A stretch of DNA of 64,000 bases from Escherichia phage vB_EcoM_ESCO47, in sequence record OM386662.1; one strand, 5' to 3'. Below are positions 15,851 through 39,142 of the stretch, one piece after another (position 1 is the first letter of the stretch; each line of letters opens with the position of its first letter). The notes under the pieces were generated by a model. It ran no database searches. It was not told the DNA's origin and saw nothing but the letters and a program-made list of their open reading frames with translations. The translations under genes and the position numbers were made by a program.

Positions 15851-15903
15851 TCGCTTTTAGTTCCATATGATATAATTCCTCATAAATTAACTGAGGAAAA
15901 CTT

Positions 15904-16635
15904 ATGGAACTAATCTTCTTAAGTGGTCTCAAACGCAGTGGTAAAGACACTACAGCAGACTACATCAATTCAAACTTTAAATCCATTAAATACCAATTGG
16001 CCGCACCGCTAAAAGACGCTCTAGCTATTGCATGGGCTCGCAAACACGACGAAAATCCGGATGTGTTCATTGAATTAAAATATGAATATTTTGAAGGTGT
16101 CGGGTATGATCGTGAAACACCATTAGACCTTAACAATTTAGACGTTATTGAACTAATGGAAGAAGCTATTACTTATTTGCAAAAGTGTTATTTGCCTATA
16201 GGTGATATTAAAATACTGTCGGCTGGAGACGAATACTCTTATTTAGATGTTAAATCCTACAATGCTCTGCGAGACGTTATAAATAAAATCAACGACACAT
16301 GGTCTATCCGCCGTCTTATGCAAGCCCTCGGTACGGATGTTGTTGTTGATTTATTTGACCGTATGTATTGGGTTAAGCTTTTTGCATTAAACTATATGGA
16401 TTATATTGGAAGTGATTTTGATTACTACGTTGTAACCGATACACGCCAAGTCCATGAAATGGAAACCGCTAGAGCGATGGGTGCTACAGTTATTCACGTA
16501 GTTCGCTCTGGACAGGAATCCAATGATACACATATTACAGAAGCTGGGTTGCCTATTGAAGAAAGCGACCTGGTTATTACAAACGACGGCTCCCTAGAAG
16601 AGCTTTATTCTAAAATTGAAACTATCTTAAGGTAA
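15904..16635 (+). CDS. 1: Deoxynucleoside monophosphate kinase gp1
   Basis: P-loop SGLKRSGKDTTAD; sequence close to recalled T4 gp1. Confidence 0.9.
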   Translation: MELIFLSGLKRSGKDTTADYINSNFKSIKYQLAAPLKDALAIAWARKHDENPDVFIELKYEYFEGVGYDRETPLDLNNLDVIELMEEAITYLQKCYLPIGDIKILSAGDEYSYLDVKSYNALRDVINKINDTWSIRRLMQALGTDVVVDLFDRMYWVKLFALNYMDYIGSDFDYYVVTDTRQVHEMETARAMGATVIHVVRSGQESNDTHITEAGLPIEESDLVITNDGSLEELYSKIETILR

Positions 16636-16870: not shown

Positions 16871-17326
<456 letters not shown>

Positions 17327-17338
17327 TTTCACAAACCA

Positions 17339-17379
17339 GTTTACAATGTTATAGGGCTATGTTATAGTAGTCCTATCAA
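17339..17379 (+). promoter_or_regulatory. T4-type early promoter
   Basis: GTTTAC -35, ~17 bp, TGnTATAGT extended -10, conserved CCTATCAA start region. Confidence 0.55.
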
Positions 17380-17405
17380 AACAAAACCAAATTAAAGGAA
17401 ATAAA

Positions 17406-17717
17406 ATGAAAACTTATCAAGAATTTATCGCCGAAGCTTCTGCTGCGCCAAAGACATTCATTATTAATACTCAGGTAGGTCTTGACGATGAGTATGCGGA
17501 TGCAATTCTGAAGTCACTTGCTAAGAACGGCGTTGAAGTAATCGCTTCGGACTTTAAGAAAGGGGCTTCCGAGATGTTTATTTCTATAACTAAAGGATCT
17601 AAAGCTAAGATCAAATCATCGTTCGGAGTTGCTCGCACCGATCAAATCGACAGACATGACTTTAAACAAACCGGTGTTAAACGACAGAACACAATTGCAT
17701 CACGTGGAATAAAATAG
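17406..17717 (+). CDS. Internal head protein (IpI-like) with capsid targeting sequence
   Basis: N-terminus MKTYQEFIAEA = T4 internal-protein capsid targeting sequence with LxE prohead-protease site; own early promoter. Confidence 0.7.
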   Translation: MKTYQEFIAEASAAPKTFIINTQVGLDDEYADAILKSLAKNGVEVIASDFKKGASEMFISITKGSKAKIKSSFGVARTDQIDRHDFKQTGVKRQNTIASRGIK

Positions 17718-17730
17718 TTTCACAAACCAT

Positions 17731-17771
17731 GTTTACTTTTAGATGGGGTAGTGATACTATTACCCTATCAA
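17731..17771 (+). promoter_or_regulatory. T4-type early promoter
   Basis: GTTTAC ... TGATACTAT ... CCTATCAA. Confidence 0.55.
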
Positions 17772-17820
17772 AACAAAACATCCAAATGGAAACTAAAATG
17801 AAAACATATCAAGAATTTAT
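17752..17820 (+). repeat. 69-bp direct repeat (promoter, leader and first codons of an internal-protein gene), copy 1
   Basis: Identical to 18095-18163. Confidence 0.8.
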
Positions 17821-18070
17821 CTCCGAATCCAGCCTTAATGAAGAAGTAAAAATTAACAAACCCGTTAAGGCTATTATCGATAATATAAACTATCTTTATA
17901 ACATCGATCTTACAAACTATATATTGATAGGCAATAAACGGAACTTTTTTACATTTGATATCTCGGAACTTGACCAGAATCAAATCAATAATATTGAACG
18001 CTTTGCTAATGACAAAGGGTTACGCCACGAGACAGCCGGCTATAAAAAATATGCAATTTATCTAAAATAA
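17798..18070 (+). CDS. Internal head protein family member (capsid targeting sequence)
   Basis: Start set at MKTYQEFISE (ORF-track start 17729 is upstream); 69-bp leader repeat shared with next gene. Confidence 0.65.
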   Translation: MKTYQEFISESSLNEEVKINKPVKAIIDNINYLYNIDLTNYILIGNKRNFFTFDISELDQNQINNIERFANDKGLRHETAGYKKYAIYLK

Positions 18071-18073
18071 ATT

Positions 18074-18114
18074 GTTTACAACGGGCTCTAGTGGTGATAC
18101 TATTACCCTATCAA
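18074..18114 (+). promoter_or_regulatory. T4-type early promoter
   Basis: GTTTACAACGGGCTCTAGTGGTGATACTATTACCCTATCAA. Confidence 0.55.
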
Positions 18115-18163
18115 AACAAAACATCCAAATGGAAACTAAAATGAAAACATATCAAGAATTTAT
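18095..18163 (+). repeat. 69-bp direct repeat, copy 2
   Basis: Identical to 17752-17820; adjacent 44-bp promoter block 18071-18114 also recurs at 18366-18409. Confidence 0.8.
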
Positions 18164-18365
18164 TGCAGAAGCTAAAAGACATGAAGATGAACTGCCTTTT
18201 GTTTCAAAAACCGTTGTTGGAACATTGGCTGATTTTAAAAAAATTCCTAATGATAAACTTGCTAAATTGGTTGGTTCTATCAGTGAAAAAGGTGGCAAGG
18301 TCACATTTACTGCTCAAGGCACAGCCAATCTTAAAAAACTTTTGAAAGCAGCTGGTGTTGAATAA
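18141..18365 (+). CDS. Internal head protein family member (capsid targeting sequence)
   Basis: Start set at MKTYQEFIAEAKRHEDE; identical promoter/leader repeat as previous gene. Confidence 0.65.
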   Translation: MKTYQEFIAEAKRHEDELPFVSKTVVGTLADFKKIPNDKLAKLVGSISEKGGKVTFTAQGTANLKKLLKAAGVE

Positions 18366-18368
18366 ATT

Positions 18369-18409
18369 GTTTACAACGGGCTCTAGTGGTGATACTATTA
18401 CCCTATCAA
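18369..18409 (+). promoter_or_regulatory. T4-type early promoter
   Basis: Exact repeat of promoter at 18074. Confidence 0.55.
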
Positions 18410-18424
18410 CTTGAGGAGAATAAA

Positions 18425-18610
18425 ATGAAACGTTGTGAATTAATTAGAAATGTTACTGCACTGGTCGCTGTTACTGCTTTTGGTTTTAGCATGTTTGCAG
18501 GATTCATGCTCGATATGCTTTCAACTTCCGAGAATATAATCTCTTTAGTAGTGGCATTTTTAATTGGTTCAATCTCTTTTGTTATGGATAAAATCTCTAA
18601 AGGTGGCTAA
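18425..18610 (+). CDS. Small hydrophobic membrane protein
   Basis: Start at MKRCEL with GAGGAG RBS; two predicted TM segments. Confidence 0.5.
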   Translation: MKRCELIRNVTALVAVTAFGFSMFAGFMLDMLSTSENIISLVVAFLIGSISFVMDKISKGG

Positions 18611-19017
18611 TGAACGTTGAATATTATGTATATGCGGATTATGAAAATAACCCGTCTAAAGATGAAGATAACCGTTTAGGCGTTGATCCTTTTGATTCTC
18701 CTGGTGCAGCTTGGCAATGGATTGAAAGCACTGATATTCCATATCGCTATATTGAAGTTGTTGACCAGGTTGGTAATAAGTATCCTAAGGAAGCATACGT
18801 CCCTTCAGGTAAGGTGAATTTTCTTTTGTTCGCCGGTGATAACTATTATCCACGTGGCGGCTATACCGATTTAATCGCTAAAGCATTTTCTGAAGACACA
18901 TTACGTGAAATCATTAAAGAAAACGAGAATAAGCCGCGATACGGTTCTGATCGTTTCGACTGGTGGCAGATTGTTAATGCCATCACCCATACTATTGTTG
19001 ATGAGGGTCAAGCATGA
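18610..19017 (+). CDS. Hypothetical protein
   Basis: 135-aa ORF, TAATG coupling to upstream gene; no recognisable domain. Confidence 0.5.
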   Translation: MNVEYYVYADYENNPSKDEDNRLGVDPFDSPGAAWQWIESTDIPYRYIEVVDQVGNKYPKEAYVPSGKVNFLLFAGDNYYPRGGYTDLIAKAFSEDTLREIIKENENKPRYGSDRFDWWQIVNAITHTIVDEGQA

Positions 19018-19298
19018 TTCTTTATGCTAAAGTATCATCCATTGAAAATGGATATAAAGGCGACCAAGATGCAGCAAAACAGTTGATTGATGTCTATGGT
19101 ATTTTAACATGTTTTGAAGTTGAAAAGGTTTATATCGACCGTTCATCTTCACAAGTCAAATTGATTTGGGAAGACCGTAAATTCAACACGGTTAATTTTG
19201 ATTTCTTTATTGAAACTGAATCAGGCCCAGTTGAATACGACATCTTCAAGAATCCTTTAGGACTGGATTGCATTCAGAACACATACACAATATGGTGA
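19014..19298 (+). CDS. Hypothetical protein
   Basis: 94-aa ORF, ATGA-coupled; no recognisable domain. Confidence 0.45.
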   Translation: MILYAKVSSIENGYKGDQDAAKQLIDVYGILTCFEVEKVYIDRSSSQVKLIWEDRKFNTVNFDFFIETESGPVEYDIFKNPLGLDCIQNTYTIW

Positions 19299-19330
19299 GA
19301 AATTGTTTTACTGACAGTAAAAATGATTAA

Positions 19331-19357
19331 TTTGCTTTAAGAATTATGTGTTATTAT
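19331..19357 (+). promoter_or_regulatory. MotA-dependent middle promoter candidate (upstream of tRNA cluster)
   Basis: MotA box TTTGCTTTA, 12 bp, -10 TATTAT. Confidence 0.45.
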
Positions 19358-19418
19358 TAATAAGTACCCTCTATTACCAAAGGTTCTTCCCTCAAAGAGC
19401 CTTTCATAATAGAATTAT

Positions 19419-19493
19419 GGCCCTTTAGCTCAATGGGAGAGCTGTCAGCTCATAACTGATAGGTAGCTGGATCGAAACCAGCAAGGGTCACCA
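19419..19493 (+). tRNA. tRNA with CAU anticodon (Met or lysidine-modified Ile)
   Basis: Manual cloverleaf: acceptor GGCCCTT/AAGGGTC, D-arm GCTC..GAGC, anticodon loop CTCATAA, T-stem GCTGG/CCAGC, 3' CCA encoded. Confidence 0.75.
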
Positions 19494-19497
19494 ATTT

Positions 19498-19569
19498 GGA
19501 TGCATAGCTCAGTGGTAGAGCAGTTGACTGTTAATCAATTGGTCCATGGTTCGAATCCATGTGTGTCCG
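19498..19569 (+). tRNA. tRNA-Asn (GUU anticodon)
   Basis: Manual cloverleaf: D-loop AGTGGTA, anticodon loop CTGTTAA, T-arm CATGG-TTCGAAT-CCATG; acceptor with G-U pairs; no encoded CCA. Confidence 0.7.
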
Positions 19570-19576
19570 CAAATTA

Positions 19577-19652
19577 CGAGGCATAGCTCAGAAGGAAGAG
19601 CAAGGACCTTCTAAGTCCTAGGTCGTAGGTTCGATCCCTACTGTCTCGACCA
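19577..19652 (+). tRNA. tRNA-Arg (UCU anticodon)
   Basis: Manual cloverleaf: acceptor CGAGGCA/TGTCTCG, anticodon loop CTTCTAA, T-loop TTCGATC, CCA encoded; T4 also carries tRNA-Arg(UCU). Confidence 0.75.
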
Positions 19653-19813
19653 AACAAGAAACCGGGTCGCTACCGGCAAGTCGTCGGACTGATGTTCCCT
19701 GTTTAAGGACTGGCATTAACAAATCTTTATGTTTTGTTAATGCCCCCTTACATCACAACAGAAACGGCGCATTGAACACTTACCTAGTAGGTGGAAACCC
19801 CGACAAGGTATAT
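19653..19813 (+). ncRNA. Candidate small structured RNA downstream of tRNA cluster
   Basis: Non-coding stretch with perfect 12-bp hairpin (19712-19744) ending at intrinsic terminator; T4 encodes small stable RNAs at the equivalent position. Confidence 0.3.
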
Positions 19814-19842
19814 AGCCCCTTCCGAAAGGTTGGGGCTTTTTT
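19814..19842 (+). terminator. Intrinsic terminator after tRNA/small RNA region
   Basis: AGCCCC-TTCCGAAAGGTT-GGGGCT followed by TTTTTT. Confidence 0.7.
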
Positions 19843-19843
19843 G

Positions 19844-19851
19844 TATAAATA
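19844..19851 (+). promoter_or_regulatory. T4 late promoter
   Basis: TATAAATA immediately after terminator, 36 nt upstream of ORF 19887. Confidence 0.55.
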
Positions 19852-19886
19852 TAGTAAACAATAAACCTACTTTCTAAGGACCATCA

Positions 19887-20507
19887 ATGTATACCTTTAA
19901 TGAATTTTTAGCCGAAACGGAAGTAATCACCGAAGCCGGTGTACGTATGACAAAAGAGAAATGGCAAGCTGCTTACGACGCTATTTCTGGTACAAAAACT
20001 AGTACAGAGTTTTTCAAAAACGTTCAAGCCATGTACGGTATCGACACTTCCAGCCAAAAAGAATATTACAGAGCTTCTAAAGCATTCAAAGATATTGTTA
20101 GTGGTGGTGTTTCTGCTAAATCAGGTTCGCCTAAAGTAAAACCTGCTCCTACCATTCCTAAACCTGCGTCCCCTAAAGCAAAACCTGAGCCTAAGCCGGA
20201 AGTAAAAGCAACTCCTAAAGCTCCTGCTCTTAAGTTTGATACTTCTAGCCTGGAAAAAAAATATAAACAACTATCTTCGCTTGTTCGTGATATTGAATCT
20301 GATACATCTTCACTCGTTCGTGAATTCAATAGTCTTCGTAATGGCCAACATATCAACAACCTTGATACCCCAGACCTTTATCGTCTTTATTTGACTATCG
20401 AAGGTTTGAAGTACACTCAACCACTTCATGATGAGATTAAAGAAAAACTTCGTCAAGCAGGTCGTTTGGCTGCTGACGCTGCTCAGTATGCAAAAACTCG
20501 TAAGTAA
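19887..20507 (+). CDS. Hypothetical protein with CTS-like N-terminus and Pro/Lys-rich linker
   Basis: MYTFNEFLAETE resembles the capsid targeting sequence; KPAPTIPKPASPKAKPEPKPE linker; late promoter TATAAATA upstream. Confidence 0.55.
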   Translation: MYTFNEFLAETEVITEAGVRMTKEKWQAAYDAISGTKTSTEFFKNVQAMYGIDTSSQKEYYRASKAFKDIVSGGVSAKSGSPKVKPAPTIPKPASPKAKPEPKPEVKATPKAPALKFDTSSLEKKYKQLSSLVRDIESDTSSLVREFNSLRNGQHINNLDTPDLYRLYLTIEGLKYTQPLHDEIKEKLRQAGRLAADAAQYAKTRK

Positions 20508-20510
20508 AGA

Positions 20511-20530
20511 ATGGGGACTTCGGTCCCCAT
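20511..20530 (+). other. C(UUCG)G tetraloop RNA hairpin
   Basis: ATGGGGAC-TTCG-GTCCCCAT directly after stop codon of ORF 19887-20507. Confidence 0.6.
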
Positions 20531-20568
20531 TAGGGGTCTATAACTTACTGAAAAAGTTGTTTACTTCT

Positions 20569-20608
20569 TCCCTAGATGTGTTACTATAGACCTATCAACA
20601 ACATGAGG
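20569..20608 (+). promoter_or_regulatory. T4-type early promoter
   Basis: GTTTAC ... TGTTACTAT ... CCTATCAA. Confidence 0.55.
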
Positions 20609-20616
20609 AGAATATT

Positions 20617-20922
20617 ATGAGTCTTTACACTGAACTGAATAAAAAAACTGAAGAATCTGCTGAAACTATTTTTAAAAACGTGCAAAAGCGTATTTTAGAA
20701 AAGATGTATAACGCTGCAGCTAAAGGTGAAAAATCTTGTCGGTTTCCGATGAGGTGTTCTTCTGATTTATGCGCAAATACTATTGAATGGTTGGAAAGTG
20801 AAGGTCTTACGGTAGAGAAAAACCCGGCGACTTCTATTGATGGCGAATCATATATTAGTATTTCTTGGGATAAACCACGTATGAATGAAGGACACTACAA
20901 GTTGTTAAGTTGGAAAAATTAA
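20617..20922 (+). CDS. Hypothetical protein
   Basis: 101-aa ORF with GAGGAG RBS and own early promoter. Confidence 0.5.
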   Translation: MSLYTELNKKTEESAETIFKNVQKRILEKMYNAAAKGEKSCRFPMRCSSDLCANTIEWLESEGLTVEKNPATSIDGESYISISWDKPRMNEGHYKLLSWKN

Positions 20923-20931
20923 AAATAATGA

Positions 20932-20970
20932 TGTATAAACACCAATGATGGTGATACTATAGACTTATCA
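20932..20970 (+). promoter_or_regulatory. T4-type early promoter (variant -35)
   Basis: GTATAAAC ... TGATACTAT ... CTTATCAA. Confidence 0.4.
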
Positions 20971-20989
20971 ACTACAGAGGAGAAACAAA

Positions 20990-21217
20990 ATGGCTAAAGT
21001 TAGTATTGATGTCGTTGATTATGAATACACAGAAGAAGTTATTCGCAACCGTCACCCTGAAGTTCGTATCGATTCAGTACAAGATTCCAAGTTCTGGACA
21101 ACTGAGCTTAATCTGAGTGGTCCTTATGAAGCTGTTAAGAAGTTCATGGTTGAAGAATACTGCGAAGGAATGCACCCGGAAGACGCCAAGTTTTATGTCA
21201 ATTTGATTAAAAAATAA
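20990..21217 (+). CDS. Hypothetical protein
   Basis: 75-aa ORF with GAGGAG RBS. Confidence 0.5.
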   Translation: MAKVSIDVVDYEYTEEVIRNRHPEVRIDSVQDSKFWTTELNLSGPYEAVKKFMVEEYCEGMHPEDAKFYVNLIKK

Positions 21218-21252
21218 TTTACAAACTCTTGAGAGCAGAGTATAATGCTCTC
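21218..21252 (+). promoter_or_regulatory. Sigma70-type promoter with -10 embedded in a palindrome
   Basis: TTTACA-N17-TATAAT; inverted repeat GAGAGCA / TGCTCTC brackets the -10. Confidence 0.5.
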
Positions 21253-21287
21253 ATTGGATAATAAACCACCAATTGAAAGGTAATAAT

Positions 21288-21881
21288 ATGAACACACTGA
21301 AGAAACTTGTTGAATTCATCCGCACTAAACTGGGTACTGCTATGGCTAAAAATCTTACTGTCGAAGAACAGTATAACGCAGCTGCAGATAAGTTGATTAC
21401 CCAAATCAAAGAACTAAAAACGGCTTCTGTTAAATCTATTAATGAAGAAAAACGTATTCGCGAACTTGTTAATGAAAAGAACAAGCAAGCCGCTTCTAAG
21501 GAACGTGAAATTCGTAAGCTCCTGGCTGAAGGACAGGATGTTACCATGCATGCTAAGCTTGGTCTTCTGTATCGTCGAACTGCCGAACAACTTAATACAA
21601 AAGCTGATGGGTATGCCGCTATGCGAATTGAAATTGCTCGTAAGGTGGTTGAACTTGACGATGCTCGTCAGAATCTGGCAATCAAACTCGAATACATTCG
21701 TGAAACTCGAGCAGCCAATGCCCTTGGTATCTCTACGGCTGATGATGTAATTGAAATCGCTGCACTGACTAAGGTTGATATCGAAGACACTCTGACTCGT
21801 GTTGAAACGTTCAATGGCTCTCCAGCTGGTGTCGAAACCACTTCTGCTGATGTACAAGAATATATTAACTCTTTGAAATAA
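21288..21881 (+). CDS. Hypothetical coiled-coil protein
   Basis: Start set at MNTLKK with GAAAGG RBS; long predicted helical/coiled-coil region. Confidence 0.5.
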
Positions 21882-21889
21882 AATAATAC

Positions 21890-21911
21890 GGAGGACTCCG
21901 GTCCTCCTTTT
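21890..21911 (+). terminator. Intrinsic terminator
   Basis: GGAGGAC-TCCG-GTCCTCC followed by TTTT. Confidence 0.65.
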
Positions 21912-21930
21912 GGATAATAAAGGAGTTAAC

Positions 21931-22533
21931 ATGCGAAACCAAAATAATGATATTGACTCAATGTTCGAAGAGTTCCGAGATAAGGTAAATCCACCTACGT
22001 CTTTAGTTGATTCATTACGATATGTTGCAACCGGACGTAAATGGTACTGGTCGTCTTCTTATGAGACCACCGAGAAAACGGCTAGCCATAGCAGAAAATC
22101 TTTATTAGCCCCAGGTATTATGATTCATGATATCGGAGCTATTGCTAAACTAGTTGCAGACCATGATATTAGATTCACTGATTTCGTTGCTCCTACGTGG
22201 TCTGTTTGTTGTTTAAACACTGAATGGGAATATATCAGCGAACGCTCTGAAGATTATTATGGTTTTAGAGATAAGCTTCTGAGGTCTAATATGTTTTATA
22301 TCGATACAGAAGTTCTAGTCGATAATAAAAAATATTACTTTACGTTAATCATCGATTCTGAAACTATGTATGAAGGCAAGCCTTTGCTTAAAAGAGTTGA
22401 TGCTTTAAGTGCTATTGATGCGCTTTATGAAACTATGGTTGTTAGTCCTAATTTCACTAACAATTTAATCCTTGAGCAATTTATTATGGAATGTAGAGAA
22501 TATGTCAAAGCCAACCCTGTACATGCCAATTAA
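21931..22533 (+). CDS. Hypothetical protein
   Basis: Start set at MRNQNND after AAGGAG RBS; follows terminator hairpin. Confidence 0.5.
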   Translation: MRNQNNDIDSMFEEFRDKVNPPTSLVDSLRYVATGRKWYWSSSYETTEKTASHSRKSLLAPGIMIHDIGAIAKLVADHDIRFTDFVAPTWSVCCLNTEWEYISERSEDYYGFRDKLLRSNMFYIDTEVLVDNKKYYFTLIIDSETMYEGKPLLKRVDALSAIDALYETMVVSPNFTNNLILEQFIMECREYVKANPVHAN

Positions 22534-22897
22534 GCCCTGGGCATATGAATACAAGCGTAAATTAATCCCAAATGAAGTACTATTTGGCCCTATTTTAGCT
22601 TTAGCATTTTTAATCTTTATGATTATAGGAGCCGTTTTAGATTCTAGTGAAGTTATATCGTCTGATGCAGCATTTTCATTAATGTTCGTCGCACCACTTA
22701 TTGTACCGTTTTTATTAATGCCTATTAACTGGATGGGATATTGGTACCAAGGACGTCATCACAGAGCCAGATTAAGAGAATGGAAAGTTCAGTGCGCAAA
22801 AGCCCAAGCTCAGTATGATGAAGCTGTTAAAAAATACGAATACAATGAAGCCATGGAATTCGTTAAGGAAATAAGATGCAAAAGCCTCAACTCTTAA
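22502..22897 (+). CDS. Small membrane protein, FIKECR-tail family
   Basis: Start MSKPTLYMP after conserved junction GGAATGTAGAGAATATG; two TM segments; C-terminal EFVKEIRCK. Confidence 0.45.
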   Translation: MSKPTLYMPIKPWAYEYKRKLIPNEVLFGPILALAFLIFMIIGAVLDSSEVISSDAAFSLMFVAPLIVPFLLMPINWMGYWYQGRHHRARLREWKVQCAKAQAQYDEAVKKYEYNEAMEFVKEIRCKSLNS

Positions 22898-23235
22898 CCG
22901 TATGGCCTTCTCTTGGTGAGAACATTCTAATTTTTATTATGAGTATTGGCATGGGATTTGCCTTTGGATTAGTTGGATTTCTTATTGACAGCGTTGTGTT
23001 AGGATTTATAGGGAACACTGGTGGATTCACAGACCAATGGCAGGACTTACGGTATACCCAAGCCTTTGCATCCATCGCATCATTTTGTACTGTAGTCTAT
23101 TTTTACTACGATTTTATAAACCACAACAAGAAAAATAAAAAGGTTTACGCTTCTCAAATGATTAGTTATAATGAACTCCTAGCTAGACGTGAAAATGAAA
23201 CAATCGAAAACTTTATTAAGGAATGTAGAAAATGA
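22876..23235 (+). CDS. Small membrane protein, FIKECR-tail family
   Basis: AAGGA RBS; TM segments; ends ENFIKECRK. Confidence 0.5.
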   Translation: MQKPQLLTVWPSLGENILIFIMSIGMGFAFGLVGFLIDSVVLGFIGNTGGFTDQWQDLRYTQAFASIASFCTVVYFYYDFINHNKKNKKVYASQMISYNELLARRENETIENFIKECRK

Positions 23236-23537
23236 GTAAGATTATTGAAATTAAAGTACCAGAGTTTAATGATGCCAAATCCGCTTCAGATGCAATTTAT
23301 AAACTTCTGAATCAAGCTGAACGTATCGAAGAAGAAGCAACAAAGATCGCAGACCAATATGCCGTATCATTTTCTGTAGGTGATTATGGTAGCGGTCGTA
23401 CTTATTATCCTAAGGGTGAAATCGTATCCCAGTGGATGAAAAATGAAATTGAAAATAATGGTGGCGATGTTAAGCGTGAAGGTAATGGTTACGTTATTAC
23501 TGAAGGTGCTTGGGTTTCGTCTTCTGCGTTGTGCTAA
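23232..23537 (+). CDS. Hypothetical protein, GWVSSSxxC-tail paralog 1
   Basis: ATGA coupling; C-terminus GAWVSSSALC shared with the next two genes. Confidence 0.5.
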   Translation: MSKIIEIKVPEFNDAKSASDAIYKLLNQAERIEEEATKIADQYAVSFSVGDYGSGRTYYPKGEIVSQWMKNEIENNGGDVKREGNGYVITEGAWVSSSALC

Positions 23538-23546
23538 GGAATCACT

Positions 23547-23819
23547 ATGTCTAAAGAACAAACCGAACTGGCTGAAGCTGTAGCAAAAATCTATGCATCT
23601 ATTGAGGCAGCCAAAGAAATTGCTGATAAACAAAACACCACGTTTAATTTGTATCCGGCATATGGTATGGGCGGAACCTATCATTCACCAGGTTATCTTA
23701 AAGCCGACCTTGAACATCATACTAAACATGGTAACCCTGAATGGGCTGACGTTTACCAATATGACTACAACCTGAGCCTTGAAGATGGCGGTTGGGTTGC
23801 ATCTTCTCACACTTGCTAA
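23547..23819 (+). CDS. Hypothetical protein, GWVSSSxxC-tail paralog 2
   Basis: AAGGA RBS; C-terminus GGWVASSHTC. Confidence 0.5.
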   Translation: MSKEQTELAEAVAKIYASIEAAKEIADKQNTTFNLYPAYGMGGTYHSPGYLKADLEHHTKHGNPEWADVYQYDYNLSLEDGGWVASSHTC

Positions 23820-23828
23820 GGAAACCAT

Positions 23829-24026
23829 ATGTCTCGTGAATTAGATTGTGCTGTACGTACGGCAGTAGCTGCTCTGGAAAACCTGTTCCAAATTGCAACA
23901 GAAGAACGCGAAGAAGTTACATTATGGATTGAAGATAACGCAGGTCTGAATCTCCAGGACGCGATTTCATTATCCCACAATAGTATTACTGTTCAAGGCT
24001 GGGTATCATCTAGTTATTCTTGCTAA
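23829..24026 (+). CDS. Hypothetical protein, GWVSSSxxC-tail paralog 3
   Basis: AAGGA RBS; C-terminus QGWVSSSYSC. Confidence 0.5.
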   Translation: MSRELDCAVRTAVAALENLFQIATEEREEVTLWIEDNAGLNLQDAISLSHNSITVQGWVSSSYSC

Positions 24027-24030
24027 AACA

Positions 24031-24072
24031 GTTTACAACAAGATAGGGCTATGTTATAGTAGTCCTATCAAA
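24031..24072 (+). promoter_or_regulatory. T4-type early promoter
   Basis: GTTTAC ... TGTTATAGT ... CCTATCAA. Confidence 0.55.
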
Positions 24073-24088
24073 TTAAATGGAGTCCACA

Positions 24089-24328
24089 ATGATTTATTAC
24101 GAAAGTATCGGAACCGAAGTAGTTGCTAAAACTATTACTCGTGAAAAGTTTGCAAAGATATTCGATATGCGTTATAAAAAATCTGAACACAAAGGCATCC
24201 GATTCAAAGATGCGCACTGTACAATTTGCCCTTATAATGAAGACATAAATGGTACAATCGTTCCATTGGTAGAGGCTTCACATGATGACCTCTGGGATGA
24301 ATATAATATCGCATGTCGTGAAATTTAA
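24089..24328 (+). CDS. Hypothetical protein
   Basis: Start set at MIYYESIG after early promoter. Confidence 0.45.
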   Translation: MIYYESIGTEVVAKTITREKFAKIFDMRYKKSEHKGIRFKDAHCTICPYNEDINGTIVPLVEASHDDLWDEYNIACREI

Positions 24329-24353
24329 GTAATCTAAATTCGAGGAAATTATT

Positions 24354-25310
24354 ATGATGTTAGTTATTGGTTCTCGTGCACTTCACTATCACGGTCTTAT
24401 TGATTCTAGCGCTATTAAAAATAGTGATTGGGACTTTATTGCGGATCAAGGTTCTTGGAATGCATTCAAAAATCAAATGATGGGTGTATATGTTCACCAA
24501 GATAACCCTGATGTCCAAGTTTTCAAATGCTTCCATAATGGACGCGAAACTCATTTTGAAGCATATATTGTTCCGGCAATCACTAATGTCCGTGAATTAG
24601 TCGGTGAACTCACTCCTGAAGATTTCACGTCTTCTTATGACCTTTTAAAATACGCCAGGAAAAATTTGACTAAAGACCGTTTGAACGGGTTTTACTGGGC
24701 AACTCCTGAGATATGTCTTGCAATTAAGATGTCTCATCGTTTCAAGAAAAATAATCCATTCTTTTTAAAGACTATGAACCATATTCAGTATCTTCGTGGT
24801 AAAGGTGTTACACCGAACGATGAACTTACTGAAATTATGCTGAAACGCCAGAAAGAAACCTTGAATTATGCTCACCCAGTTCTTGACACTTCTAAAAGTG
24901 CGTTCTTTAAAGATGACATCTATACATATGACCATGATACTATTCATGAAGCCATTGCACTAACAGACCGTCCAGCGTATACATTTTATATGAAAGACGG
25001 TTCTGAAGTCATGACCTCACGCGAGAAGTTCGAATTGTTACCAGAAATGGTCAAATTGGCCGGTGTATACGAAGAATCATGTGTACTAGCATTAGAACGT
25101 TCTCAGATTCCTAATGACTTTAAAATTAACCCTGAAGCCAGTTTCATGATGGCATTGGAAAAAGTCTGTACAAGCATCACCTCCGGTTGGTTCCGTGAGT
25201 ATGCCTGGGAAAACTACAGCAAAGTAGTAAGTATGTACCAAAGCTTAGGACATGATGATTACATCAAACGTTTCAAACAAAATTTCCATATGGTAAAACC
25301 TTTCAAATAA
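24354..25310 (+). CDS. Predicted nucleotidyltransferase-fold protein
   Basis: N-terminal GSRALHYHG...SDWDFIAD fits the minimal nucleotidyltransferase GS...DxD signature; GAGGA RBS. Confidence 0.5.
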   Translation: MMLVIGSRALHYHGLIDSSAIKNSDWDFIADQGSWNAFKNQMMGVYVHQDNPDVQVFKCFHNGRETHFEAYIVPAITNVRELVGELTPEDFTSSYDLLKYARKNLTKDRLNGFYWATPEICLAIKMSHRFKKNNPFFLKTMNHIQYLRGKGVTPNDELTEIMLKRQKETLNYAHPVLDTSKSAFFKDDIYTYDHDTIHEAIALTDRPAYTFYMKDGSEVMTSREKFELLPEMVKLAGVYEESCVLALERSQIPNDFKINPEASFMMALEKVCTSITSGWFREYAWENYSKVVSMYQSLGHDDYIKRFKQNFHMVKPFK

Positions 25311-25322
25311 CTTCACAAAACT

Positions 25323-25363
25323 GTTTACAACATGATAGGACTATGTTATAGTAGTCCTATTAA
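25323..25363 (+). promoter_or_regulatory. T4-type early promoter
   Basis: GTTTAC ... TGTTATAGT ... CCTATTAA. Confidence 0.55.
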
Positions 25364-25380
25364 AACATGAGGAGAATATT

Positions 25381-25686
25381 ATGAAATTAGGCGAAACCAA
25401 CCGAATTGGCCTTTTAACAATATTTGCATCACCTTTTTACGCAGCCCTTTCTGTTGCAGTATTACAAAAGGCTTACGATATGGATGGTGTTCCTGGTTTT
25501 GTATTCTTATCACCGTTTTTATTATTCGTCGGAGCATTGTTATTATATGCAACTACCGGTTTAGACCATAATGTCTGGGTCAATTATAAATGTAAATTGT
25601 CTGAAGAAGAACACGCAGAAGCTCGTAAAAAAACTATTGAATCTACCAATCTAGAAAATTTCATTAAAGAATGTCGAGGAAAATAA
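25381..25686 (+). CDS. Small membrane protein, FIKECR-tail family
   Basis: GAGGAG RBS; TM segments; ends ENFIKECRGK. Confidence 0.5.
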   Translation: MKLGETNRIGLLTIFASPFYAALSVAVLQKAYDMDGVPGFVFLSPFLLFVGALLLYATTGLDHNVWVNYKCKLSEEEHAEARKKTIESTNLENFIKECRGK

Positions 25687-25687
25687 T

Positions 25688-26374
25688 ATGAATAGTTCTA
25701 AAGTGTTTAATAGTCAAGCTCGTGCAGTAGGTGGTTTTGCTCATGCGATTAAAAACGGCCAAATTAAAAACGAGACTATGTTCTTTAACTGCGATTTGAA
25801 TTTTGCTTTTGATAATGGCGGCCCAATTACTCGTAGCTTTATCCAAAATCTTCCTGACGATTGGAAAGACTCGGATGTAGTATTTGATTCACGAGTCCAC
25901 ATGCTGATGCCTGGTTGGTATCCTGCTATCCCAGGTTATCACCATGACGATGTACCACGCCCTGATATTCCAGTTGGTCAACACTTTATTACTGCAGGAC
26001 AACCTGACTATGACAATCCTCGCTATTTGTCTGAACATATTCTTGGACTTGTTAACGCTGATGTGTGTCCTACTCATTTTGCAACAGGAACTGCAGAGTT
26101 CAGTCAGATTCCTGATGGCGAACTTATCTATCGTCAGTGGCACAAAGAAGTCCTCGAAAAAATCGAAAAAGGTGAACTAGAGAAATGGGAAGCTCCAGAT
26201 CGTACTCTTCTTCAGTTTGATTGGCAAACATGGCACACTGGTTCTCGTGCAATTAGTAACGGATGGCGTTGGTTCGGACGTGTATCTCGTAATACAGACC
26301 GAGTTAAAAAGATTACCAATGAAATTCGTGTCAATGCTCAAGTTTATCTGGAATTCCCTATGGAAGGCTGGTAA
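25688..26374 (+). CDS. Hypothetical protein
   Basis: 228-aa ORF with GAGGA RBS; no confident domain. Confidence 0.5.
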   Translation: MNSSKVFNSQARAVGGFAHAIKNGQIKNETMFFNCDLNFAFDNGGPITRSFIQNLPDDWKDSDVVFDSRVHMLMPGWYPAIPGYHHDDVPRPDIPVGQHFITAGQPDYDNPRYLSEHILGLVNADVCPTHFATGTAEFSQIPDGELIYRQWHKEVLEKIEKGELEKWEAPDRTLLQFDWQTWHTGSRAISNGWRWFGRVSRNTDRVKKITNEIRVNAQVYLEFPMEGW

Positions 26375-26865
26375 TGATTAACAAAACATATTGGTCTAAT
26401 ATTGACGACGGCAATGAAGGTATTTCGTACTATTCAGTAGATTGGACAGGATGTCCATCCTACTTAGTGAAACGTATTTGCCAAGAATTTAAAATCAACC
26501 AGCCAGCAGGTATTATCGTGAACAGATACATTAATGGATATCAACCTATCGATGAAGTAATACGAACAACTCAAGCTGATCTTGAAAAGTTTTTCAATAA
26601 GTGCCAATGGATAACAGGATGGATTATATTTGTACCGTCGGTATGGTTTTTCAGTACTAAGGTGAGTTCTTTCGGTTTTGTTGATATTATCGCTATCTTA
26701 TTAGCATCTACTATTGTAAGTGTTGTTGGTGGCATCATTGGCGGCGGTACCGCCGCCATCATTATTAATCTTATTAAAAGTAGTTTACAAGAACATAAAG
26801 ACAAGATAAAAGCCAAGAATAATGAAGTTGAACGTTTTATTACCGAATGCAGGAATTTGAGATGA
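26374..26865 (+). CDS. Membrane protein, FIKECR-tail family
   Basis: TAATG coupling; Gly-rich TM segments; ends ERFITECRNLR. Confidence 0.5.
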   Translation: MINKTYWSNIDDGNEGISYYSVDWTGCPSYLVKRICQEFKINQPAGIIVNRYINGYQPIDEVIRTTQADLEKFFNKCQWITGWIIFVPSVWFFSTKVSSFGFVDIIAILLASTIVSVVGGIIGGGTAAIIINLIKSSLQEHKDKIKAKNNEVERFITECRNLR

Positions 26866-27098
26866 GTATAGCAATTTACATTAAGTCAGAATCATGTGAT
26901 AGTTATCTGTACACATACGATAAAGATGTGTCAGAAGAAAAAATCAAAGACGACCTTAATATGGACCTTGATATGTTCTGTCCTATTGCAGATTACAAAC
27001 TTGCGGTCTCTAATAGTGAAAGTCCATCTAAAGAAACGCGCATTGAAGAATTTATGTCCGAATTAATGGCCAAATCATGGAACAGAGATGATGAGTAA
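26862..27098 (+). CDS. Hypothetical protein
   Basis: ATGA-coupled start at MSIAIYIKSE. Confidence 0.45.
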   Translation: MSIAIYIKSESCDSYLYTYDKDVSEEKIKDDLNMDLDMFCPIADYKLAVSNSESPSKETRIEEFMSELMAKSWNRDDE

Positions 27099-27546
27099 GA
27101 AAAATAAAGTGAAAGAGCTATCAGCCGGTATTATTTTCCTTACCGAAGATAAAGAGTTATTCATGGGGCGTGTAACTGGTTCTCGTCCTAAAGGTGCATT
27201 AGCTCATCGGTGGGATATTCCTAAAGGCCGTGTCGAACCTGGCGAATCTCCTATTGAAGCCGCTATTCGTGAATGCGAAGAAGAAACTGGGTTTACACAG
27301 TATGATCCGGCCTTCCTGAAAGATCTAGGTGAACATCGATACTCAGATAATAAGAATATTCATCTGTTCTATTATACGATCCCTGTAGAGCACGAGCAAT
27401 TCAGACACAGTGTTTGTAGTGCTTATCATACATTCCCTGATGGAACTTCTATCCCAGAATTTGATGCATTTGCACTAATTAAACCGAGTCAATGGGAATA
27501 TGTAATGGGTAAATCTTTATATAAGGTGCTCACTGCCATTCTGTAA
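27088..27546 (+). CDS. nudE: Nudix hydrolase NudE
   Basis: Nudix box GESPIEAAIRECEEETGF; immediately upstream of e as in T4 (e.1). Confidence 0.85.
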   Translation: MMSKKNKVKELSAGIIFLTEDKELFMGRVTGSRPKGALAHRWDIPKGRVEPGESPIEAAIRECEEETGFTQYDPAFLKDLGEHRYSDNKNIHLFYYTIPVEHEQFRHSVCSAYHTFPDGTSIPEFDAFALIKPSQWEYVMGKSLYKVLTAIL

Positions 27547-27553
27547 TTAATAA

Positions 27554-27580
27554 ATACCTCCTATAAACGTGGGAGGTATT
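27554..27580 (+). promoter_or_regulatory. RBS-sequestering hairpin with embedded late-promoter-like box upstream of lysozyme e
   Basis: Perfect 8-bp stem ATACCTCC / GGAGGTAT; 3' arm contains the SD GGAGG; loop TATAAACGTG. Confidence 0.65.
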
Positions 27581-28075
27581 ATGAATATATTTGAAATGCT
27601 TCGTAATGACGAAGGTCTTAGACTGTCTTTATACAAAGACACTGAAGGCTTTTGGACGATTGGCATAGGCCATTTAGTAACAAAGAACCCGTCTTTAGCC
27701 GTAGCTAAAGCTGAACTTGACCGAATGATAGGTCGTAAATGCAACGGTACAATTACACTTGATGAGGCTGAAAAGCTATTTAATGAAGACGTTGATAAAG
27801 CCGTTCGCGGAATCTTGGGTAATGCTAAACTAAAACTGGTTTATGATTCTTTAGATGCGGTGAGACGTTGTGCATTAATAAATATGGTCTTCCAAATGGG
27901 TGTAGCAGGCGTCGCAGGTTTTACTAATTCTCTTCGTATGCTTCAGCAGAAACGTTGGGATGAGGCAGCAGTAAACCTTGCCCAGAGCAAGTGGTACCGT
28001 CAGACGCCTAATCGCGCAAAACGTGTGATTGCTACCTTTAAAACTGGTACATGGACCGCGTATAAAAATCTATAA
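27581..28075 (+). CDS. e: Endolysin (T4 lysozyme, gene e)
   Basis: [32 protein letters not shown]... near-identical to recalled T4 lysozyme; start set at MNIF (ORF-track start 27569 upstream). Confidence 0.95.
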
Positions 28076-28079
28076 AGTT

Positions 28080-28113
28080 GTTTACTTTGTCCTGTGACCA
28101 TGATACTATATCC
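28080..28113 (+). promoter_or_regulatory. T4-type early promoter
   Basis: GTTTAC ... TGATACTAT. Confidence 0.5.
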
Positions 28114-28115
28114 AT

Positions 28116-28193
28116 AGTTACTTGAACAGACAAATCACTAATTAAAATATTTACATTTAGAACTCATATGAAAACATATAAAGAATTTATCGC
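28116..28193 (+). repeat. 78-bp direct repeat (leader and CTS codons), copy 1
   Basis: Matches 28602-28679 with one mismatch. Confidence 0.8.
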
Positions 28194-28566
28194 AGAGAAT
28201 GTAATTCCTGCATCTAAAGAACTTTTGGTGACGTTTGAATCCGAAGAGTTCACCGAAGAACTGAATGAGAACCTGACTACTGCCACACCTCAGGTTATCC
28301 GTGTTCGTAACGCCCTGCAGTCAGGCATGCCGGCCGGTGTCTCTAAGACCATGAAGTTGGCATTCACTACTTCTAATAACGAAGACTTTGGCAACGGTAT
28401 CGCTATGAACACTGGGCAGTATTATGTTGAGTGGAACGGTGAAACCGGCACGGCTAAGATTCGTCAGACACGTGCCGCTGGTGGCAAAATGCTGGACGTT
28501 AAACTAAACGTTAAAGAGAAAGACGTTGTAGCTCTGTTCAAGAACTGGATGAAATCTTACAAATAA
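28168..28566 (+). CDS. Internal head protein (IpIII-like position) with capsid targeting sequence
   Basis: N-terminus MKTYKEFIAEN; position after e as T4 ipIII. Confidence 0.65.
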   Translation: MKTYKEFIAENVIPASKELLVTFESEEFTEELNENLTTATPQVIRVRNALQSGMPAGVSKTMKLAFTTSNNEDFGNGIAMNTGQYYVEWNGETGTAKIRQTRAAGGKMLDVKLNVKEKDVVALFKNWMKSYK

Positions 28567-28600
28567 GTTTACATCTCCTAGAATTGTGATAGTATATCTA
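28567..28600 (+). promoter_or_regulatory. T4-type early promoter
   Basis: GTTTAC ... TGATAGTAT. Confidence 0.5.
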
Positions 28601-28601
28601 C

Positions 28602-28679
28602 AGTTACTTGAACAGACAAATCACTAATTAAAATATTTACATTTAGGACTCATATGAAAACATATAAAGAATTTATCGC
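28602..28679 (+). repeat. 78-bp direct repeat, copy 2
   Basis: Matches 28116-28193 with one mismatch. Confidence 0.8.
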
Positions 28680-29229
28680 TGAAGCTTCTGTAGCAAAAGC
28701 CCAAGGCATTAATAAAGACGAGTGGACTTACCGCGGAAATGGCTTTGACCCTAAAACAGCTCCTATCGAACGGTACTTAGCTACAAAGGCTTCCGACTTT
28801 AAAGCCTTCGCTTGGGAAGGACTTCGCTGGCGTAACGATCTAAATATTGAAGTTGACGGACTTAAATTTGCCCATATTCAAGATGTTGTTGCTAGTAACT
28901 TGGACGCAGCTTTTGTTAAAGCTGACGGTGACCTTCGTCGCTGGAATTTAAAACTATTCTCTAAACAGAAAGGTCCGGTGTTTGTGCCTAAAGCTGGTAA
29001 ATGGGTTATTGATAATAAATTAGCTAAGGCTGTCAACTACGCTGGTCTTGAATTCGCCAAGCATAAATCAAGATGGAAAGGTCTTGATGCAATGGACTTC
29101 CGTAAAGAATTTGCCGATGTTATGACTAAAGGCGGCTTTAAGGCAGAAATAGATACCTCTAAAGGTATGTTTAAAGACGCTAATATTCAGTACGCGTATG
29201 CTGTTGCTAATGCAGCCCGTGGTAATTAA
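28654..29229 (+). CDS. Internal head protein (IpII/IpIII-like) with capsid targeting sequence
   Basis: N-terminus MKTYKEFIAEA; 78-bp leader repeat shared with previous gene. Confidence 0.65.
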   Translation: MKTYKEFIAEASVAKAQGINKDEWTYRGNGFDPKTAPIERYLATKASDFKAFAWEGLRWRNDLNIEVDGLKFAHIQDVVASNLDAAFVKADGDLRRWNLKLFSKQKGPVFVPKAGKWVIDNKLAKAVNYAGLEFAKHKSRWKGLDAMDFRKEFADVMTKGGFKAEIDTSKGMFKDANIQYAYAVANAARGN

Positions 29230-29267
29230 TAAGGCCTATACGGCTTATTTACATTTAAAGGAAACAT

Positions 29268-29570
29268 ATGAAAACATATCAAGAATTTATTACTGAAGCG
29301 CGAGTGAGTGCAGGTAAATTAGAAGCCGCTATAAATAAAAAGGCCCATTCATTTCATGATTTGTCCGATAAAGACCGTAAGAAACTTGTAAGCCTTTATA
29401 TTGACAAAGAGCGTATTCTCGCTCTTCCTGGCGCTAATGAAGGTAAACAGGCCAAGCCTTTGAATGCTGTCGAAAAGAAAATTGATAACTTTGCTTCTAA
29501 ATTTGGTATGTCTATGGATGACCTTCAGCAAGCGGCTATCGAAGCAGCTAAAGTAATTAAAGGTAAATAA
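29268..29570 (+). CDS. Internal head protein family member with capsid targeting sequence
   Basis: N-terminus MKTYQEFITEA. Confidence 0.65.
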   Translation: MKTYQEFITEARVSAGKLEAAINKKAHSFHDLSDKDRKKLVSLYIDKERILALPGANEGKQAKPLNAVEKKIDNFASKFGMSMDDLQQAAIEAAKVIKGK

Positions 29571-29606: not shown

Positions 29607-29627
29607 ATAATTACTTGGGTGGGTAAA

Positions 29628-29756
29628 ATGACTTATATTAATTTGACTTTAGTATCTGAATTTGCTGATCAACATTTAATCGCTGAATATTGTGAATTAC
29701 CATGTGGTTTTGGTGTAATTCGTAAATACGTGGCAAAAATATTTACATTCAAATAA
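29628..29756 (+). pseudogene. denV: denV (endonuclease V, pyrimidine-dimer glycosylase) remnant, truncated after 42 codons
   Basis: [25 protein letters not shown] aligns to recalled T4 Endo[26 protein letters not shown] but Arg3, Arg22, Arg26 are replaced and the frame stops at codon 43. Confidence 0.6.
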
Positions 29757-29902
29757 AATGGGAACAACCTGGACCTCATGATTCTATGAGGGATTCCCGC
29801 CGACCTGTAATAAGGTCGAGCGCAATGCGGTAATGAGTTTACATAGCGAGTCGAAGGACCTAACATGTGCCAAGGAATGGCCCAAACCTAGAGAGAAATA
29901 AT

Positions 29903-30442
29903 ATGAGAACATTTTTAACCGGACCTTATCTATCCCTGATGAATGCTTTTACACACCATTCTGATGCTAGAGTAGAAGAAATTTGTAAGAACGGTTATAT
30001 CCCACCATTTGAAGACGTACTCAAGCAGTACTGTACACTTCGTTTAGACGGTGGCAGACAATCAGGTAAATCAACTGCAGTAACTAATTTTGCCGCTAAT
30101 TGGCTGTACGACGGTGGAACAGTTATTGTTCTTTCTAATACTTCAGCTTATGCTAAAATTTCTGCTGGCAACATTGAAAAAGAATTTTCTCGTTATTCTA
30201 GCGATGATATTCGATTCCGTTTATTTACTGATTCTGTCCGTAGTTTTATTGGCAATGAAGGTTCTAAATTCCGTGGATTAACGCTTTCTCGTATTCTGTA
30301 TATAATTGACGAGCCTATTAAAGCTCCTGATATGGATAAGATTTACAATGCCCATATTAAAACAGTACAGCACTGCTGCAAAAGCAAATATTGCATCGGC
30401 GGTATTGCTCGTCCTCAATTTTTTGTGATAGGAATGCAATGA
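29903..30442 (+). CDS. P-loop NTPase-like hypothetical protein
   Basis: Walker A-like GGRQSGKST; start set at MRTFLTG with AGAGAG RBS. Confidence 0.5.
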   Translation: MRTFLTGPYLSLMNAFTHHSDARVEEICKNGYIPPFEDVLKQYCTLRLDGGRQSGKSTAVTNFAANWLYDGGTVIVLSNTSAYAKISAGNIEKEFSRYSSDDIRFRLFTDSVRSFIGNEGSKFRGLTLSRILYIIDEPIKAPDMDKIYNAHIKTVQHCCKSKYCIGGIARPQFFVIGMQ

Positions 30443-37305: not shown

Positions 37306-37332
37306 ATAAATAACTCTTAACTTGAGGTAAAT

Positions 37333-37614: not shown

Positions 37615-37618
37615 ATGT

Positions 37619-37638
37619 GGGGACCTTCGGGTCCCTTT
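37619..37638 (+). other. C(UUCG)G tetraloop RNA hairpin
   Basis: GGGGACC-TTCG-GGTCCC followed by TTT, after ORF 37333-37614. Confidence 0.6.
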
Positions 37639-37666
37639 AGGGGGTTAAAATATTTTTAAAAAAGTA

Positions 37667-37704: not shown

Positions 37705-37733
37705 GAAACGAAATGAGTAAATTGGAGAATAAA

Positions 37734-39140: not shown

Positions 39141-39142
39141 TT

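Follow-up and report, generated by a model that had tools for sequence, protein, structure and literature searches.

Internal protein genes of Escherichia phage vB_EcoM_ESCO47 and two unlabelled families that carry the capsid targeting leader

Between positions 17,406 and 29,570 of a 64,000-nucleotide stretch of Escherichia phage vB_EcoM_ESCO47 (sequence record OM386662.1), here called the window, seven genes encode proteins that begin with nearly the same ten residues and continue with unrelated bodies, raising the question of what such a common leader does for these proteins and whether all seven belong to a system that is already known. We find that the feature is real, that it was correctly recognised in an earlier note made from the sequence alone and that it is already known, the reading put forward in that note being the textbook interpretation. 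With a probability of roughly 80%, the seven genes are internal protein (ip) genes of a T-even phage, whose products would be packaged by means of a capsid targeting sequence (CTS), cleaved by the prohead protease gp21 and injected as anti-restriction cargos, and which would recombine as cassettes. The new part is modest and resides in two genes, designated w19887 and w28168 after their start positions, which have so far been annotated only as hypothetical.

The shared leader and the cargos behind it

The first 10 residues of the T4 internal protein IpIII are enough to target foreign proteins to the prohead core, and gp21 removes this leader (PMC9026906, PMC3012670); within the CTS, residues 4 and 7 matter for targeting and residues 8 and 10 for cleavage (PMC9026906). 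A six-frame regular-expression scan of the window with the leader pattern M[KY]T[YF]xEF[IL]xE returned exactly seven open reading frames (ORFs), all on the + strand and with the same coordinates as the CTS-like starts reported in the earlier note. The strict motif occurred on average 0.0 times in 200 shuffles, ruling out chance as the origin of the seven leaders. A looser leader pattern provided no further candidates within the 64 kb; the 57B homolog, whose MKFEDF start fits a loose pattern, was considered as an eighth member and rejected, since it lacks the I/L-x-E tripeptide and corresponds to the known protein Acb1.

Six canonical leaders are identical to the T4 IpII/IpIII leader MKTYQEFIAE at nine or ten of its ten positions, and that of w19887 (MYTFNEFLAE) at six. 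The residues critical for targeting are kept in all seven (Tyr or Phe at position 4, Phe at position 7), as are Ile or Leu at position 8 and Glu at position 10; T4 IpI likewise has Phe at position 4. The cleavage site had been described beforehand as L-x-E. A protease-type tripeptide is indeed present at residues 8–10 in every case, but the six canonical leaders carry I-x-E (IAE, ISE or ITE) and only w19887 has L-x-E (LAE). The P1′ residue that follows is Ala, Ser or Thr, except for Asn in w28168. Longer, 5′-extended ORFs are listed for the genes at 17798 and 18141; the MKTY starts are nonetheless taken to be the real ones, because the extensions cross a promoter module and homologs begin at MKTY. 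The predicted mature proteins range from 6.8 to 21.8 kDa, with a pI of 7.9–9.8 (9.6–9.8 in five of them, 7.9 in w17798 and 8.1 in w28168).

Sequence comparison assigns the window (37.6% G+C) to a T-even phage nearest to Mosigvirus, its top nucleotide matches being the Mosigvirus members G2469 and F27. On the + strand, in T4 transcription order, the genes run 1, 57A, 57B, three CTS genes, trna.4/.3/.2, three tRNAs (Met, Asn, Arg) and w19887, followed by homologs of e.6–e.2, nudE, e, w28168, ipIII, ipII and a denV remnant. Both ip loci are thus syntenic with those of T4 (57B-ipI-trna.4 and e-ipIII-ipII-denV), and six of the seven genes map to the described ip loci (57B to trna.4, or e to denV), w19887 being the exception. 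Five belong to PHROG families annotated as internal head or virion protein. None of the seven had a match above threshold in Pfam or NCBIfam, and a PDB sequence search of w19887 and IpIII gave no match.

At the e locus, the gene at 28654..29229 (+) encodes a 191-aa IpIII ortholog (leader MKTYKEFIAE; phrog_5341, E=9e-117) with 92.7% identity to T4 IpIII over 192 aa, and that at 29268..29570 (+) a 100-aa IpII ortholog (MKTYQEFITE; phrog_7857, E=5e-55) with 93% identity to T4 IpII. An extra cargo, w28168 (28168..28566, +; 132 aa, MKTYKEFIAE), is located between e and ipIII. Its family (phrog_15461, 'unknown') is represented in 49 phage records, all labelled 'hypothetical', and keeps the leader invariant across all homologs; judged by its sequence, w28168 is an unlabelled Ip family at the e/ipIII locus, new as annotation only. 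The slot of T4 ipI holds three other cargos. The first, w17406 (17406..17717, +; 103 aa, MKTYQEFIAE; mature protein ~10.0 kDa, pI 9.8), is an Ip7-family internal head protein (phrog_2667, 'internal head protein', E=8e-41) found in 283 phage records, with 90% identity to a T2 'internal head protein' and 49.5% to Ip7 of VR25, the phage from whose GenBank annotation the Ip numbering is taken. The second, w17798 (17798..18070, +; 90 aa, MKTYQEFISE; phrog_7673, E=2e-53), is an Ip9 ortholog, 83% identical to the annotated ip9 of VR25. The third, w18141 (18141..18365, +; 74 aa, MKTYQEFIAE; phrog_8765, E=3e-25), belongs to an internal virion protein family with homologs in 107 phage records; weak PHROG cross-matches hinted at a distant IpII relative, which neither leader-trimmed BLASTP nor hhalign supported. 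No ortholog of T4 IpI was detected among the window proteins, where matches end within the first 7 residues, so that no member is to be filed as IpI.

The lack of kinship among the bodies behind the shared N-terminus is borne out by wider sampling. A degenerate DNA leader pattern identified 69 IMG/VR loci with 117 unique CTS-led ORFs, which after trimming of the leader formed 33 BLASTP clusters, the seven window proteins being distributed over seven different ones. In profile–profile comparison with hhalign, no window family reached a probability above 6.7% against any other, the profiles being shallow enough for very remote fold-level kinship to escape. Two of the seven are plain orthologs of T4 IpIII and IpII. 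With 33 unrelated cargo families behind one leader, even in this small sample, most of the repertoire is functionally uncharacterised and might be a source of new inhibitors that act on type IV restriction or on other defence systems. The arsenal, which the earlier note had called expanded, is so relative to T4, which carries 3 CTS ORFs in the interval from gene 1 to denV, but not relative to its relatives, which hold four to seven in the same interval: 4 plus an IpI-type gene in Mizar, 5 plus an IpI-type gene in CAU_ECP01, 5 in JS98, 6 in F27 and 7 in G2469. The annotation of VR25 lists Ip5, Ip6, Ip7, Ip9, Ip10 and three unnamed internal head proteins.

Several further CTS-led ORFs came to light in these comparisons. 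JS98 (NC_010105) contains a 97-aa CTS-led ORF (MKTYQEFIKES...) between 57B and trna.4, at 9796 (+) of the locus, that is unannotated in RefSeq. RB69 (NC_004928) encodes two on its − strand, both annotated as hypothetical: RB69ORF149c (~15551-15991; 146 aa, MKTYAEFLTEA...), in the slot that follows the tRNAs, and RB69ORF124c (5848-6120; 90 aa, MKTYKEFIAES...). Some of the IMG/VR ORFs far exceed the classical Ip size (three clusters, of 282–610 aa, 296 aa and 269 aa), and their length suggests that enzyme-sized cargos might be packaged via the same tag. Several leader matches fall on environmental metagenome contigs in IMG/VR, and the CTS leader may reach beyond enterobacterial T-even phages.

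The function of such proteins has been addressed in T4. Diverse defence-countering cargos behind a conserved CTS in T-even phages are explicit in Rao & Black 2010 (PMC3012670), and IpIII is required for infecting ECOR17 and works without its CTS when cytoplasmic (PMC9391042). Silas et al. 2025 found that T4 Ip1, Ip2 and Ip3 inhibit distinct GmrSD type IV restriction enzymes, with no cross-protection, and proposed that all proteins of both ip loci target variants of one system, at least 10 Ips having been reported from related phages (PMC12373910). Mosigviruses contain arabinosylated cytosines and are still sensitive to the GmrSD-family enzyme BrxU (PMC13390438), so the anti-GmrSD logic holds for this phage too. 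Recognition of the T4 CTS in the window and the reading of its bearers as packaged, injected cassette cargos match the published view (PMC9026906, PMC12373910).

Applied to the window, the explanation runs as follows. The CTS would bind the scaffolding core of the assembling prohead, bringing the protein into the head before DNA packaging, and gp21 would cut after Glu10 at (I/L)-x-E, leaving a small neutral-to-basic mature protein. This protein would remain among the packaged DNA and be ejected with the genome into the next host, where, as a consequence, it could act before any phage gene expression, neutralising modification-dependent restriction enzymes of type IV (GmrSD family), which attack DNA containing sugar-modified cytosines. 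Homologous recombination between modules made up of promoter, ribosome-binding site and CTS would insert, delete or swap cargo bodies. Repoila et al. reportedly described the diversity of CTS-led cargos in 1994 and read them as defence-countering injected proteins.

The closest parallel is provided by T4 IpI-III, which share with the window genes the CTS MKTYQEFIAE, the (I/L)-x-E gp21 site, the two loci and small basic mature proteins; two of the window genes are direct orthologs of T4 proteins that are injected GmrSD inhibitors. The differences are the absence of IpI, with three other cargos in its slot, and one extra cargo at the e/ipIII locus. Moreover, this phage, being Mosigvirus-like, probably has arabinosylated DNA instead of glucosylated hydroxymethylcytosine, and the relevant restriction-enzyme subtypes may differ. 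Among the variable Ip4-Ip13 of other T-evens (VR25/VR7, T2, T6), w17798 corresponds to Ip9 and w17406 to the Ip7 family, and w18141 is from a family annotated as internal virion protein; distribution is likewise patchy, with several copies per genome. The w28168 and w19887 families bear no Ip name or internal-protein annotation in the records seen. T4 Alt and the ejection or inner-body proteins of SPN3US and phiKZ resemble the Ips in being packaged in the head, processed at x-x-E sites by a prohead protease and reaching the cell along with the DNA, so that host takeover can begin at once. Their targeting signals, however, are different, Alt being processed at both ends; they are also much larger and do not form leader-sharing cassettes.

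How far the anti-defence role extends differs among the seven. Orthology to a shown GmrSD inhibitor is restricted to the IpII and IpIII orthologs, which, given their similarity to the T4 proteins, are very probably inhibitors of GmrSD type. BLASTP and hhalign revealed no homology between the other five cargos and any shown inhibitor; most likely, four of them (Ip7-like, Ip9, w18141 and w28168) would act as additional inhibitors, each specific to particular subtypes. The anti-defence role proposed in the earlier note has therefore been demonstrated only in T4, for the orthologs of two of the seven genes, and we infer both packaging and anti-defence activity for the five non-T4 cargos.

Several points weigh against extending the T4 picture to all seven genes. 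Only the T4 versions are known to counter GmrSD enzymes, and Ip specificity is narrow, so that a divergence of 7% could change the target. The P1′ Asn of w28168 departs from the residues seen in the others, while w19887 combines a leader identical at only 6 of 10 positions with a location outside both classical loci, and is conserved rather than hypervariable, which is atypical for an arms-race effector. Gene 21, which encodes the gp21 protease, and the scaffold genes fall outside the 64-kb window, as do all of genes 20-24 and alt; no sequenced T4-type phage is known to lack genes 20-24, which provide both the prohead protease gp21 and gp22 of the scaffolding core. A search of the literature found no virion proteomics for a phage carrying w19887 or w28168, and the only T4-like virion dataset found, from a Jiaodavirus preparation with >130 proteins detected, is not discriminating. 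Structure prediction, a check proposed in the earlier note, was run for w19887 and w28168 and returned no functional clue.

Since the system is understood in outline, the window adds little conceptually. Injected internal proteins are nevertheless the first phage factors to face host immunity and help set which wild E. coli strains T-evens infect, making the Ip repertoire relevant to the choice of therapy phages, and the w28168 and w19887 families could be labelled from their leader alone.

The seventh gene at a third locus

The gene that fits the known system least well, w19887 (19887..20507, +; 206 aa; phrog_2280, 'unknown'), has 142 records, all 'hypothetical', and is located after the tRNA cluster, outside both ip loci described in the literature (PMC12373910). 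A GC-rich hairpin followed by a U-run, resembling a terminator, ends the tRNA unit at 19814..19842 (+) and is also found in G2469 and JS98; its free energy is -16 kcal/mol (z = -2.7), and six U follow. The octamer TATAAATA at 19844..19851 (+), 43 nt before the w19887 ATG, is a perfect copy of the T4 late-promoter consensus, which the + strand of the 64 kb contains only 7 times; the octamer is kept 36-43 nt 5′ of the Mosigvirus, Dhakavirus and Karamvirus homologs. Directly after the stop codon, a stem-loop with a UUCG loop (20510..20531, +; -15.5 kcal/mol, no U-run) precedes an early-promoter module at ~20560, in a layout that resembles the early-promoter/stem-loop (PeSL) arrangement of other T4-type phages. 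From its sequence features, the w19887 family can be classed as an unlabelled, late-expressed CTS protein at a third locus, new as annotation only.

The leader is retained in homologs from six genera at 33-60% overall identity. It takes the canonical form MKTYNEFLNE in Dhakavirus, MLNFxEFITE in Karamvirus and Kanagawavirus, MLKFKEFISE in Winklervirus and MLKFKDILTE, with Ile at position 7, in Marfavirus; JS98 orf135 also belongs to the family, alongside the Karamvirus, Kanagawavirus, Winklervirus and Marfavirus homologs. A second site of cleavage type, [ILV]-x-E followed by [A/S] at about residues 14-16, is nearly invariant in the homologs and recalls T4 IpI, which is cleaved after ITE19. The slot after the tRNAs holds CTS ORFs in RB69, JS98, G2469, F27, Mizar and CAU_ECP01, the one in RB69 (ORF149c) being a different CTS-led cargo. 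An exhaustive profile search of 1.84 billion proteins recovered 14 representatives of the family, all phage-like and with N-terminal matches; a 2154-aa protein that also matched the profile did so through the low-complexity linker only and was discarded as spurious. The AF2 model comprises two helical domains (residues 20-73 and 113-206, pLDDT ~85) separated by a disordered Pro/Lys linker, and a Foldseek search of it against the PDB returned only generic helical-hairpin matches (best E=2.2). The AF2 model of w28168 had a mean pLDDT of 43.8 and was dropped from the fold search.

The leaders of the homologs, above all the canonical one in Dhakavirus, lead us to read w19887 as packaged, and it is probably a packaged and processed protein, conserved and unrecognised so far. 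Its conservation and late-only regulation mean that its role need not equal that of the hypervariable Ips. We consider the odds slightly better than even that w19887 and its relatives constitute an unrecognised third class of T-even packaged protein, CTS-tagged, late, two-domain and present in at least six genera, with a conserved target in the host or in early infection. If so, CTS tagging would be used outside both classical ip hotspots; in any event, this third locus encodes a conserved protein that is a candidate for packaging.

An alternative account, unlikely in our view and still the strongest of the competitors, would have certain CTS proteins, chiefly w19887 and perhaps IpIII, serve primarily as structural or DNA-organising components inside the head, aiding core or prohead assembly or neutralising DNA charge. 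The conservation of w19887 in position and sequence over six genera, unlike the patchy Ips, is what such a component would display, as are the exclusive late promoter and a basic protein (pI 9.6) whose two helical domains are joined by a disordered linker rich in Lys and Pro; in T4, IpIII-minus and triple-Ip mutants show head-assembly aberrations, and Ip lysines contact DNA phosphates (PMC9026906, PMC3012670). Yet w19887 has no homolog in T4, is replaced by another CTS cargo in RB69 and has no counterpart in the slot in VR25, making it dispensable for head assembly in this group, and IpIII has been shown to act against GmrSD in the cytoplasm, with no need of the CTS (PMC9391042, PMC12373910).

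It is less probable still that w19887 is not packaged at all, its resemblance to the CTS being a relic or a chance short amphipathic N-terminus on a protein that acts late in the infected cell. Its imperfect leader, which also has low pLDDT in the AF2 model, its position outside the two described loci and its complete lack of internal-protein annotation among the 142 records would all agree with this. The homologs argue otherwise: those of Dhakavirus type start with the canonical leader, and the aromatic residue at position 4, Phe7, Ile or Leu at position 8 and Glu10 are kept in most of them in spite of their divergence, Marfavirus having Ile7. The second conserved cleavage-type site has its parallel in T4 IpI, which itself shares Phe at position 4 with w19887, and a late promoter suits a virion component.

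Promoter repeats and the exchange of cargos

The earlier note had also proposed that the seven genes form a cassette system, and the DNA around them agrees. An early-promoter-like module (GTTTAC, 17 nt, TAnnAT, with an upstream TG) is present 5′ of five of the six canonical genes, and in all six the leader follows a Shine-Dalgarno-like sequence; the nucleotide repeat spans from the promoter to codon 10 and ends there. Such modules, each with its ribosome-binding site, precede w17406 (17339..17405, +; GTTTAC, 17 nt, TATAGT), w17798 (17731..17797, +; GTTTAC at 17731, repeat families D2 and D4) and, with a leader region, w28168 (28080..28167, +; GTTTAC at 28080, family D5). The promoter and leader module 5′ of ipIII (28567..28653, +) is near-identical to that before w28168: positions 28101-28196 match 28587-28682 at 95% identity, although w28168 and IpIII have unrelated bodies. 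Neither ip locus is covered to 80% or more by any deposited phage, indicating that both are mosaic.

The gene w18141 offers a clear-cut natural case of a cassette gained at promoter repeats. It is flanked by two 49-nt direct repeats, the left one (18066..18114, +; family D4) being an early-promoter module and the right one (18361..18409, +) the promoter of the trna.4 homolog; they are 100% identical, spaced by 295 nt, and contain GTTTAC-N17-TACTAT. In G2469 and F27 the gene is missing, the alignment ending at 18146 and resuming at 18415 with one promoter copy kept, which identifies the w18141 body as a ~295-bp insertion with its breakpoints in the repeats.

This arrangement recalls the PeSL-mediated modular shuffling of T4-type phages, in which excision and integration proceed through mini-circles (PMC2839356, PMC4122927). 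As in the PeSL cassettes (Arbiol 2010; Comeau 2014), single small ORFs lie between repeated early-promoter modules, and close relatives differ by presence or absence at the repeat boundaries, as for w18141 here. A stem-loop followed by an early promoter occurs 3′ of w19887; no stem-loop is evident in the 49-nt repeats flanking w18141. Unlike in PeSL cassettes, the repeat at the ip loci runs on into coding sequence, the CTS; it therefore carries the packaging tag, and a crossover leaves the new cargo in frame. The same early-promoter module also stands before small ORFs that do not encode a CTS, at 20923-20971, 24025-24113 and 25317-25405 (the last two in family D3), and 24025-24113 shares with 17333-17421 an identical run over the -10 region and transcript start; the modules are hence a genome-wide recombination substrate and not specific to ip genes.

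That the repeated leader is a mere by-product of copied DNA (promoter, ribosome-binding site and first codons), with no selection on the peptide itself, would fit both the reach of the repeats through codon 10 at up to 95-100% nucleotide identity and the modules found 5′ of non-CTS genes, but is scarcely credible, because the leaders differ from one another at synonymous positions, the peptide is conserved where the DNA is not, persisting in distant genera with different 5′ DNA and over the 33 cargo families, and its ten residues are by experiment necessary and sufficient for packaging (PMC9026906).

Neighbouring genes

The remainder of the window consists of baseplate genes and a replication block (nrdD/46/47/44/43). 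Immediately 5′ of the first ip gene, the 57B homolog (16871-17326) corresponds, according to the annotation of phage Mizar, to the anti-CBASS phosphodiesterase Acb1, so that the ipI locus adjoins a further anti-defence gene. At the other end, denV, the gene for the pyrimidine-dimer glycosylase, is reduced to a remnant (region 29619-30792): positions 29628-29735 match residues 1-36 of T4 DenV with 75% identity, and the remnant ORF ends after 45 aa. Unrelated ORFs follow 3′ of it at ~29867-30442, with a P-loop-like GRQSGKST motif, and at 30391-30792, and the region looks like a replacement event directly 3′ of the ipII cassette.

Further downstream, 36319-41775 encodes a nucleotidyltransferase (phrog_388) and three ORFs of ~320 aa without assigned function. 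The region probably corresponds to the Mosigvirus sugar-precursor/arabinosylation cluster reported in PMC13390438; if so, the cytosines of this DNA would be arabinosylated. Between both ip loci, at 23232-24026, three successive small ORFs (101, 90 and 65 aa) end in GAWVSSSALC, GGWVASSHTC and QGWVSSSYSC, and their similar termini suggest a tandem paralog family of unknown function.

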